Shown here piece by piece: positions 7,752 to 60,258 of a stretch of DNA of 64,000 nucleotides. The notes beneath the pieces were generated by a model. It did no database searches. It was not told the origin of the DNA and saw only the letters and a program-made list of their open reading frames with translations. The stretch is from the NCBI RefSeq assembly GCF_011045215.1, contig NZ_CP049201.1; one strand, written 5' to 3'. Numbering within the stretch: the stretch's first letter is position 1; each line of letters starts with the position of its first letter. This stretch comes from Escherichia coli. Its GTDB lineage: Bacteria > Pseudomonadota > Gammaproteobacteria > Enterobacterales > Enterobacteriaceae. The position numbers and the translations under genes are program-made.

Positions 7752-8960
7752 ATGTCCCGCGTATCGCAGGCGAGGAACCTGGGTAAATATTTCCTGCTCA
7801 TCGATAATATGCTGGTCGTGCTGGGGTTCTTTGTTGTCTTCCCGCTGATCTCTATCCGCTTCGTTGATCAAATGGGCTGGGCCGCCGTCATGGTCGGTAT
7901 TGCTCTCGGTCTACGCCAGTTTATTCAGCAAGGTCTGGGTATTTTCGGCGGCGCAATTGCCGACCGCTTTGGTGCCAAACCGATGATTGTTACCGGTATG
8001 CTGATGCGCGCCGCCGGATTCGCCACAATGGGTATCGCCCACGAACCGTGGCTATTGTGGTTTTCATGCCTGCTCTCGGGACTCGGCGGCACGTTGTTTG
8101 ATCCGCCGCGTTCGGCGCTGGTGGTGAAACTAATCCGTCCACAACAACGTGGTCGTTTTTTCTCGCTGTTGATGATGCAGGACAGTGCCGGTGCGGTCAT
8201 TGGCGCATTGTTGGGGAGCTGGCTGTTGCAATACGACTTTCGCCTGGTCTGCGCCACAGGGGCCGTTTTGTTTGTGCTGTGTGCGGCGTTCAATGCGTGG
8301 TTGTTACCGGCATGGAAACTCTCCACCGTACGCACGCCCGTTCGCGAAGGCATGACCCGCGTGATGCGTGACAAGCGTTTTGTCACCTATGTCCTGACGC
8401 TGGCGGGTTACTACATGCTGGCTGTACAAGTGATGCTGATGCTGCCAATTATGGTCAACGACGTGGCTGGCGCACCCTCTGCCGTTAAATGGATGTATGC
8501 CATTGAAGCGTGTCTGTCGTTAACGTTGCTCTACCCTATCGCCCGCTGGAGTGAAAAGCATTTTCGTCTGGAACACCGGTTGATGGCTGGGCTGTTGATA
8601 ATGTCATTAAGCATGATGCCGGTGGGCATGGTCAGCGGCCTGCAACAACTTTTCACCCTGATTTGTCTGTTTTATATCGGGTCGATCATTGCCGAGCCTG
8701 CGCGTGAAACCTTAAGTGCTTCGCTGGCGGACGCAAGAGCTCGCGGCAGCTATATGGGGTTTAGCCGTCTGGGTCTGGCGATTGGCGGCGCTATTGGTTA
8801 TATCGGTGGTGGCTGGCTGTTTGACCTGGGCAAATCGGCGCACCAGCCAGAGCTTCCGTGGATGATGCTGGGCATTATTGGCATCTTCACTTTCCTTGCG
8901 CTGGGTTGGCAGTTTAGCCAGAAACGTGCCGCGCGTCGTTTGCTGGAACGCGACGCCTGA
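7752..8960 (+). CDS. mdtH: MFS multidrug efflux transporter MdtH
   Basis: ORF track 7722..8960; ATG at 7752 gives 402 aa [27 protein letters not shown]... Confidence 0.92.
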
Positions 8961-9023
8961 TTTGATACTCCCCCCTGACTCCTCCATACTGAAAGTGAAC
9001 TGACAGCCAAATGGAGGAGTCAC

Positions 9024-9671
9024 GTGAAGCTATACATTTACGATCACTGCCCTTACTGCCTCAAAGCCCGCATGATTTTCGGCCTGAAAAATATCCCCGT
9101 CGAATTACATGTTCTGCTCAACGACGACGCAGAAACACCCACCCGGATGGTCGGTCAAAAACAGGTTCCCATTCTGCAAAAAGATGACAGCCGCTATATG
9201 CCAGAAAGCATGGATATCGTTCACTATGTCGATAAACTCGACGGCAAACCGTTACTGACCGGCAAACGTTCCCCTGCAATTGAAGAGTGGCTGCGCAAGG
9301 TCAATGGCTACGCCAACAAACTGCTGTTGCCGCGTTTTGCCAAATCGGCATTTGATGAGTTTTCTACTCCCGCCGCGCGCAAATATTTCGTCGACAAGAA
9401 AGAGGCCAGCGCGGGTAATTTTGCCGACCTGCTGGCCCACTCTGACGGTCTGATTAAGAATATCAGCGATGATTTACGTGCGCTGGACAAACTGATCGTC
9501 AAACCGAACGCCGTGAATGGCGAACTTTCGGAAGATGATATTCAGCTATTTCCACTACTGCGTAATCTGACGCTGGTAGCCGGAATCAACTGGCCAAGCC
9601 GCGTTGCTGATTACCGCGATAATATGGCGAAACAGACACAAATCAATTTGTTATCCTCAATGGCGATTTAA
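9024..9671 (+). CDS. grxB: glutaredoxin 2 GrxB
   Basis: ORF track 215 aa, MKLYIYDHCPYCLKARMIFGLKNIPVELHV... with CPYC active site; apparent GTG start preceded by GGAGG. Confidence 0.93.
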   Translation: MKLYIYDHCPYCLKARMIFGLKNIPVELHVLLNDDAETPTRMVGQKQVPILQKDDSRYMPESMDIVHYVDKLDGKPLLTGKRSPAIEEWLRKVNGYANKLLLPRFAKSAFDEFSTPAARKYFVDKKEASAGNFADLLAHSDGLIKNISDDLRALDKLIVKPNAVNGELSEDDIQLFPLLRNLTLVAGINWPSRVADYRDNMAKQTQINLLSSMAI

Positions 9672-19518: not shown

Positions 19519-19551
19519 AAAAAAATACCGGCATAACGCCGGTATTTTTAT
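19519..19551 (-). terminator. rho-independent terminator after opgGH
   Basis: perfect hairpin ATACCGGC-ATAA-GCCGGTAT flanked by A-run and T-run. Confidence 0.7.
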
Positions 19552-35518: not shown

Positions 35519-35552
35519 TATAAGCGCATGTTATTGTTTAACATGCGCTTTT
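35519..35552 (+). terminator. rho-independent terminator after serX
   Basis: AAGCGCATGTT-ATTGTTT-AACATGCGCTT followed by TTTTTATTTT. Confidence 0.8.
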
Positions 35553-59651: not shown

Positions 59652-60258
59652 TTGAGCCTGTAACTGTTTTTTGTCCATAAATTAACCTTCATTTGATGCT
59701 GGATAGAACATATCAAAATCAGACAATTACACAAATCTATGTACAGGCTCAACTCCTGCCATGGAACGTAGTACTCACCAATAAGTAAGCATCAATACGG
59801 CGCTCCGTTAACGCTTACTAGCATGGTTATCTCCTTAAAAAATTGAGGCGACAACTATGCTGACACAGGGGGTTACTCACCGATCTCCTTCACGGTAATA
59901 CGCAGTTCTTCAGAACCCGCCTCCGATACCAGCCTGGCGGTCGCCCCGGCGCAAGCAAAATAAATCGACCATTGTCAGACTGCGATCGTTCGGATGCCCC
60001 GCCACCGACGCATCAGTATGAGTTAACCGAAACGATACAAAATTGCCTGAGAATCATTACGCTGGCTGATGGAAGGCACACCAAAAGCCTCTGCACAGAA
60101 CGATGTTCGGCAACAACAGAAACATGATTGCGTTCATGGCAATAGTCATTCGTACCGTTACAGGCGGTATTGATTTATTACAGACAAGCGGTACATATAT
60201 GTACCGCTTGGTTAAGTAAAAAAACAGATATGAACGCTATTATGTTCATTCTACTTTA

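Follow-up and report, generated by a model that had tools for sequence, protein, structure and literature searches.

Read-through transcripts of the transposase genes of IS10 and IS50 are reportedly subject to 'fold-back inhibition', a mechanism said to have been worked out by Davis, Simons & Kleckner in 1985 and by Krebs/Schulz & Reznikoff between 1986 and 1991. The junction between mdtH and grxB of Escherichia coli, which lies within the 64,000-nucleotide stretch of DNA analysed here (contig NZ_CP049201.1; hereafter the window), resembles these elements in that the 3′ arm of an inverted repeat lies over the ribosome-binding site (RBS), the gene has its own promoter and transcription start site (TSS) between the arms, and the native mRNA, made without the 5′ arm, can be translated. 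As in IS10 and IS50, RNA that enters from upstream would fold back on the RBS, and no translation of it is expected. Three of the four features that define the IS10/IS50 systems are found at grxB, the stability of the fold being a matter of prediction, while the fourth is poor translation of the read-through RNA. The systems differ in that grxB stands at a chromosomal housekeeping junction, where the 5′ arm serves at the same time as spacer and −10 region in a sigma-S-bound promoter, and in that the grxB element is known here from sequence and prediction.

Rho-dependent 3′ ends have been described that lie beside protective stem-loops without a U-tract (Dar & Sorek, 2018; PMC6061677). The grxB repeat is similar in giving a stable stem-loop without a U-tract just past a stop codon, and may be so in the RNA immediately downstream, which leans towards C over G, but its stem also holds the promoter and RBS of the next gene, and an mdtH 3′ end at this position is predicted only. 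Pairing of an anti-Shine-Dalgarno sequence with the Shine-Dalgarno (SD) sequence, blocking 30S binding, is shared with IS200 tnpA (PMC4513863) and with RNA thermometers. In those cases, however, both arms are in the gene's own 5′ UTR, whereas the native grxB leader has no anti-SD arm and, unlike a thermometer, the grxB stem is predicted not to melt in the physiological temperature range. The promoter itself shares with sigma-S general stress promoters the CATACT hexamer, a C at −13, an A/T-rich discriminator, a sigma-S-only ChIP signal, a drop in expression in ΔrpoS and membership of the Crl regulon; it differs in having a conserved CT-rich tract from −20 to −13, which is outside the described sigma-S consensus. 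In the literature searched, no description of the grxB hairpin was found.

Results

Architecture of the mdtH–grxB junction

Of 5426 complete E. coli genomes searched by BLAST with positions 8861–9140, all but one (5425) have a match, and the genes annotated beneath it are mdtH and grxB. The two genes are on the same strand and are separated by a spacer of 63 nt (8961–9023). Translation of mdtH gives the 402-residue MdtH followed by the stop codon, a TGA at 8958–8960 that is 15 nt upstream of the stem. The spacer is largely taken up (47 of its 63 nt) by a perfect inverted repeat of 12 bp, formed by TGACTCCTCCAT at 8976–8987 and ATGGAGGAGTCA at 9011–9022 with 23 nt between the arms. An 11-bp repeat had originally been predicted here, between GACTCCTCCAT (8977–8987) and ATGGAGGAGTC (9011–9021); this is exact as far as it goes but is one pair short, T8976 and A9022 being complementary as well. 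The accompanying claim that the 3′ arm lies over the grxB SD is borne out, as GGAGG is inside 9011–9022 and the arm ends 1 nt before the GTG. The features of the junction are as follows.

7752–8960, + strand: mdtH coding sequence, MFS efflux transporter (ORF list; RefSeq annotation of E. coli loci with the same or nearly the same sequence)
8962–8967, + strand: −35 hexamer TTGATA, positions −35 to −30 from the mapped TSS (promoter scan)
8976–8987, + strand: 5′ arm, TGACTCCTCCAT; in the DNA, promoter spacer and first 3 nt of the −10 hexamer (−21 to −10)
8985–8990, + strand: −10 hexamer CATACT, positions −12 to −7 (promoter scan); present in 82 of 82 sequences (window, K-12 and 80 loci)
8988–9010, + strand: loop of 23 nt, in which the discriminator lies together with the TSS and the 14 leader nucleotides transcribed first; varies in sequence and length between genera
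8997, + strand: grxB TSS (G), equivalent to NC_000913.2 1123304 (−) and NC_000913.3 1124081; 5′ UTR of 27 nt
9011–9022, + strand: 3′ arm, ATGGAGGAGTCA; contains the SD GGAGG at 9013–9017 (as GGAGGAG, to 9019) and the greater part of the spacer before the start codon
9020–9110, + strand: C-over-G-rich stretch directly 3′ of the hairpin; speculatively, a site where Rho could load onto read-through RNA that is not translated
9024–9671, + strand: grxB coding sequence, glutaredoxin 2, GTG start (ORF list; RefSeq annotation)

In the window, a perfect inverted repeat of 12 bp or more with its arms 3–60 nt apart is found five times, compared with 0.15 times per dinucleotide shuffle, an excess of about 30-fold. 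The mdtH–grxB repeat is not a chance match.

Further perfect inverted repeats of 12–13 bp in the window are at 60185–60210, 62816–62868, 19521–19549, 35522–35550 and 46842–46885. The window's other repeats include a 26-bp perfect palindrome without a spacer (CAAGCGGTACATA/TATGTACCGCTTG) and a nested pair around TATCGATCG. The 3′ arm opens with an ATG (ATGGAGGAG...) that heads a 58-codon ORF (9011–9187, + strand); this overlaps grxB out of frame, lacks a dedicated SD and is likely to be spurious. Directly after the mdtH stop codon, the 30 nt from 8961 to 8990 contain 13 C and 2 G, including a run of six C, a rut-like composition in a tract that is partly buried in the stem. A minus-strand gene with the complementary GGAGGAG as its SD was considered and rejected, there being no start codon after it.

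Transcription of grxB starts inside the loop

The −10 elements of sigma-S-dependent promoters resemble TATACT and carry a C at −13. A consensus scan of 8500–9300 gave one promoter-like site, TTGATA (8962–8967) and CATACT (8985–8990) separated by 17 nt. With 0.8 matches expected by chance, the scan match alone is not evidence, but the promoter is confirmed by published TSS mapping and by conservation. Position −13 is C in the window and T in K-12, and the window sequence, TCCATACT, is one mismatch away from the sigma-S-type TCTATACT.

A single grxB TSS, at NC_000913.2 1123304 (−) with 34 reads and a 5′ UTR of 27 nt, was reported by Kim et al (2012; PMC3415461, Table S1), whose −50 to +1 sequence for grxB reads AACGCGACGCCTGATTTGATACTCCCCCCTGACTCCTTCATACTGAAAGTG, ending ...CATACTGAAAGTG. 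Since this string matches 8947–8997 of the window, except for the T of K-12 at 8984, +1 is G8997. Cho et al (2014; PMC3923258, Table S6) placed the grxB TSS at the same position with 2374 reads, in a transcription unit grxB;yceB, and their sigma-factor ChIP assigns it to 'S' only; in the same study mdtH is a separate transcription unit with its TSS at 1124577 and 67 reads. Their stationary-phase arrays gave log2 values for grxB of 10.8 in the wild type and 9.2 in ΔrpoS, which is about 3-fold lower, and for mdtH (b1065; Table S7) of about 6.5 and about 7.3, respectively. On loss of sigma-S the mdtH mRNA thus rises slightly and that of grxB falls, so that the adjacent genes respond in opposite directions (Cho et al, 2014). 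The table of the Crl regulon includes grxB, with no transcription factor assigned to it. The type of −10 element, the sigma-S occupancy and the rpoS-dependent mRNA are those of a sigma-S-dependent promoter, with K-12 having T at −13.

The 5′ arm ends 10 nt upstream of the point at which the native grxB mRNA begins, and the 27-nt leader of this mRNA includes the 3′ arm, at +15 to +26, and lacks the 5′ arm. Because the TSS is inside the loop, the mRNA of grxB itself cannot form the hairpin, which is possible only in RNA that reads through from mdtH. The repeat therefore brackets the grxB promoter and TSS in such a way that both arms are carried only by RNA initiated upstream, and it is only in these transcripts that the 5′ arm appears as an anti-SD-like CUCCUCC tract. 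The original prediction had proposed that the stem could sequester the SD of the grxB mRNA, unless grxB were transcribed only from downstream of the first arm. The 5′ ends in both published tables are downstream of that arm, which overlaps the −10 element, and the proposal is abandoned.

Predicted folding of read-through and native RNA

Folded as RNA, positions 8961–9040 give a hairpin of −21.9 kcal/mol, compared with −11.7 ± 2.7 kcal/mol for shuffled sequences (z = −3.82; none of 200 as good), and the hairpin is retained in the predicted fold of a 201-nt context. The 3′ arm with its SD is paired in the predicted structure. In read-through RNA, which has both arms, the prediction is of a 12-bp stem of about −22 kcal/mol that buries the SD. 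The predicted probability that the SD (9013–9019) is unpaired is 0.00 in read-through RNA and 0.28 in RNA initiated at 8997, and the ensemble cost of opening the RBS (9009–9038) is about 22–24 kcal/mol in the former against about 12–12.6 kcal/mol in the latter. At this predicted stability the hairpin would out-compete 30S binding in upstream-initiated RNA, and the stem is predicted to be closed across 25–45 °C.

The models also suggest that the native grxB RBS is not free of structure. The grxB start codon has a predicted unpaired probability below 0.02 in both the native and the read-through RNA. A small hairpin of 6 bp is predicted at 9023–9042 (CGUGAA...UUUACG), in which the GUG start is paired in both RNAs. 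A scan of 8700–9300 against Rfam at a permissive E-value gave only a chance match to mir-186 (E = 0.55, 19.5 bits against a gathering score of 70). As regards translational coupling, the footprint of the ribosome is such that a ribosome terminating on mdtH, 15 nt from the stem, would probably be just out of reach of it.

Conservation and covariation of the arms

The sequence from 8961 to 9030 is shared without change by 3842 of 5415 E. coli genomes. Six variants were sampled; their differences are at 8996 and 9004 of the loop or at 9029 of the coding sequence, or consist of the substitution C8984T. In K-12 MG1655, C8984T renders the repeat imperfect as DNA and converts a G-C pair of the RNA to G·U, giving a hairpin of −19.0 kcal/mol.

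The comparison was extended to 80 grxB loci from species-representative genomes of the Enterobacteriaceae and Erwiniaceae. TTTG(N) and CATACT, separated by 17 nt, are found at this fixed spacing in all 80, always with a TCTCYTCC-like sequence ahead of CATACT. Among the Enterobacteriaceae GGAGGAG is nearly invariant, the distance from the −10 element to the start codon is 31–48 nt, and the loop ranges from 25 to 43 nt with no conservation of its sequence. In this family, the minimum free energy fold of the region from the −35 element to +12 has the RBS paired with the tract near the promoter in nearly all genera. The start codon of grxB is GTG in nearly every Enterobacteriaceae locus including K-12 (L004–L060), accompanied by a very strong GGAGGAG SD, and ATG with a weaker AGGAGA SD in most Erwiniaceae (L061–L083). 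In the list of E. coli and Klebsiella pneumoniae MGH78578 orthologs of Kim et al (2012), b1063 is followed by b1065 and b1064 is missing; grxB seems to have no listed ortholog at the locus in MGH78578, and K. oxytoca, K. michiganensis and K. grimontii have grxB with a stem of 13 bp.

Pairs were counted in an ungapped alignment of 51 distinct Enterobacteriaceae sequences anchored on CATACT and GGAGG (A3). This was used because a MAFFT alignment (A2) misregistered the arms: the register of GGAGG was shifted in Cedecea/Buttiauxella-type loci and a gap column was put in the 3′ arm, and RNAalifold on A2 recovered only a 5-pair core. In A3, standard pairs make up 85.3% of cells, compared with 47–60% when the 3′ partner is slid by 1–3 columns, and five pairs are changed on both sides (29 cells). 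The covariation score of 0.157 compares with at most 0.087 in the slid registers and is reached by none of 500 shuffles, and for the outer pairs the two arms of a species pair better with each other than with arms swapped between species (reached by none of 5000 permutations), although, the sequences being phylogenetically related, these shuffle counts are not probabilities.

The changes that preserve pairing are of several kinds. Escherichia has G-C and A-U pairs (TGAC/GTCA) where almost all other genera have two U-A pairs (TTTC/GAAA). In Cedecea, Siccibacter and a Buttiauxella MAG, one A has been lost from the SD-start spacer, the left side has CGTT or CATGTT and the stem reaches into the GUG. 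In Kosakonia and Phytobacter the stem is prolonged inward into CATACT, with AGTATGG pairing with CCATACT. The compensatory changes represent only 2–3 independent events, and template-switch repair of a quasi-palindrome could yield coordinated changes of this sort without selection. The core pair 8982/9016 is C-G in 27 and U·G (left T, right G) in 23 of the 51 sequences, with K-12 adding one further U·G, and few of the core pairs are of the opposite, C:A, kind. That U·G is common and C:A rare fits a constraint on the sense-strand RNA, not on a DNA dyad.

Two Enterobacteriaceae loci without a recognisable mdtH point in opposite directions on the link between mdtH and the stem, as a 14-bp stem is still present in one in which mdtH was not detectable (L057) and the complementarity is gone in the other, which is on a short contig (L043).

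The junction in Erwiniaceae

In the Erwiniaceae the 5′-arm motif, (A/T)TCTCTTCCATACT, is equally conserved, the leader is 58–85 nt, the SD is AGGAGA and the complementarity is down to 6–8 bp. Several Pantoea and Erwinia loci (L062, L063, L065, L067–L069, L074, L075, L078, L080 and L082) are missing mdtH altogether, and grxB adjoins a divergent rimJ. In these loci the promoter, TTTGCC-17-CATACT with ATCTCTTCC, is unchanged. With rimJ divergent upstream, no read-through is possible in such Pantoea loci, and the retention of the 5′ arm there without mdtH implies that its conservation is at least partly driven by the promoter and not by pairing.

The grxB leaders of Pantoea, Erwinia and Mixta (L062–L082) have a hairpin of another kind, a strong and covarying GGGTGAC-N4-GTCACCC or longer GC-rich variants of it. 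It is positioned between the promoter and the SD, some 20–45 nt upstream of the start codon (e.g. at about 1455–1476 of L070), and is not present in the Enterobacteriaceae.

Discussion

A proposed junction insulator acting on mdtH read-through RNA

We infer that the hairpin is a junction insulator that acts on RNA reading through from mdtH, and would give this a probability of about one half. The original interpretation is, taken as a whole, partly supported; its suggestion of an element acting on mdtH read-through is the part that survives, as the best reading of the junction by inference. According to this mechanism the stem on mdtH read-through RNA would block 30S loading on grxB, and synthesis of Grx2 would thereby be tied to the firing of grxB's own sigma-S promoter, which is stationary-phase- and ppGpp-responsive. 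As the read-through RNA would be free of ribosomes and is C-rich just downstream of the hairpin, Rho would probably terminate within early grxB. Exonucleases would next degrade the RNA as far as the stem, and this would protect the mdtH mRNA at its 3′ end. Across 9020–9110 the C/G ratio in 78 nt is 2.0–2.2, which is above the 95th percentile of the window (1.80) and below the 99th. The insulator reading agrees with mdtH and grxB-yceB being separate transcription units with no intrinsic terminator between them. Counting against it, only a small amount of mdtH read-through would be expected to need insulation, since mdtH is weakly transcribed (67 against 2374 TSS reads; log2 of about 6.5 against 10.8). 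A search for transcript ends or operon calls at the junction yielded none, neither grxB nor mdtH being among the entries listed for Adams 2021, Yan 2018 and Ettwiller 2016.

Alternative explanations

A strong stem covering an SD would also be expected of a switch in the grxB mRNA, where it could hide the SD as a thermometer or as an element opened by an sRNA or ligand. The only mapped grxB TSS, however, is inside the loop, which puts the 5′ arm upstream of +1 where it overlaps the −10 element, and with no Rfam match and a stem predicted to be intact from 25 to 45 °C, on which account a thermosensor was rejected, such a switch is very improbable. It is more improbable still that the stem is an intrinsic (Rho-independent) terminator of mdtH. 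The original prediction had offered termination as one role and a stable stem-loop does begin 15 nt past the mdtH stop codon, but the loop of 23 nt compares with the 3–8 nt of such terminators, the 3′ flank, CGUGAAGCUAUAC, has no U-run, and a terminator scan found no site in 8961–9023. It would seem unlikely too, if slightly less so than a switch in the mRNA, that the element works as DNA, with the arms being palindromic operator half-sites that flank −10 and +20 and are bound by a dimeric or looping regulator, or forming a cruciform. While the repeat is perfect as DNA in most E. coli genomes and brackets a promoter, the spacing of the arms varies (23–35 bp, with loops given as 25–43 nt), which is atypical of an operator, so that the repeat lacks the both-strand dyad at fixed spacing of a palindromic operator. 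The T:G states seen at one core pair (23 of 51, and K-12) moreover break the palindrome and keep the RNA pair, C:A being rare in the core, and the Crl-regulon table gives no transcription factor for grxB.

The main rival to the insulator reading is that the hairpin is a by-product of two elements conserved for other reasons. A pyrimidine-rich promoter element, TCTCYTCC, would happen to complement an unusually long SD, GGAGGAGA, and template-switching would have perfected the repeat in some lineages, including E. coli. Any CU-rich tract complements an SD by definition, and conservation of the right arm is that of an RBS. The left motif is kept with the promoter even where there is no co-directional gene upstream, as in Pantoea with its divergent rimJ, and the small number of independent compensatory events and the low read-through expected from mdtH are also in its favour. 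What such a coincidence explains less readily is that a complement of 10–14 bp stays in exact register from genus to genus, around a loop that differs in both length and sequence, and that the outer pairs covary beyond the composition of their columns (0/5000 and 0/500 shuffles). The pairing also takes in bases that are not part of the SD, namely AT upstream and AAAC/TCAC downstream of it, and the wobble asymmetry fits a constraint on RNA. A by-product is thus a real possibility, though one that we consider doubtful.

Implications

If the hairpin is only a by-product, the locus is a caution that an SD-covering hairpin seen in DNA says nothing on regulation until the TSS is known. If the insulator reading is true, it would explain how same-strand genes 63 nt apart can be separate transcription units without an intrinsic terminator, and synthesis of Grx2 would follow the choice of promoter (sigma-S/ppGpp) and not merely the amount of grxB RNA. 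The design, with a promoter in the loop and an anti-SD in the promoter spacer, could be sought genome-wide and reused as a synthetic insulator. More tentatively, the junction may exemplify a stress-sigma promoter nested in an SD-occluding hairpin, such that only the transcripts of that promoter would be translated while RNA from upstream would be silenced and passed to Rho, an arrangement that would be conserved across the Enterobacteriaceae and is possibly common at tandem junctions with internal promoters.
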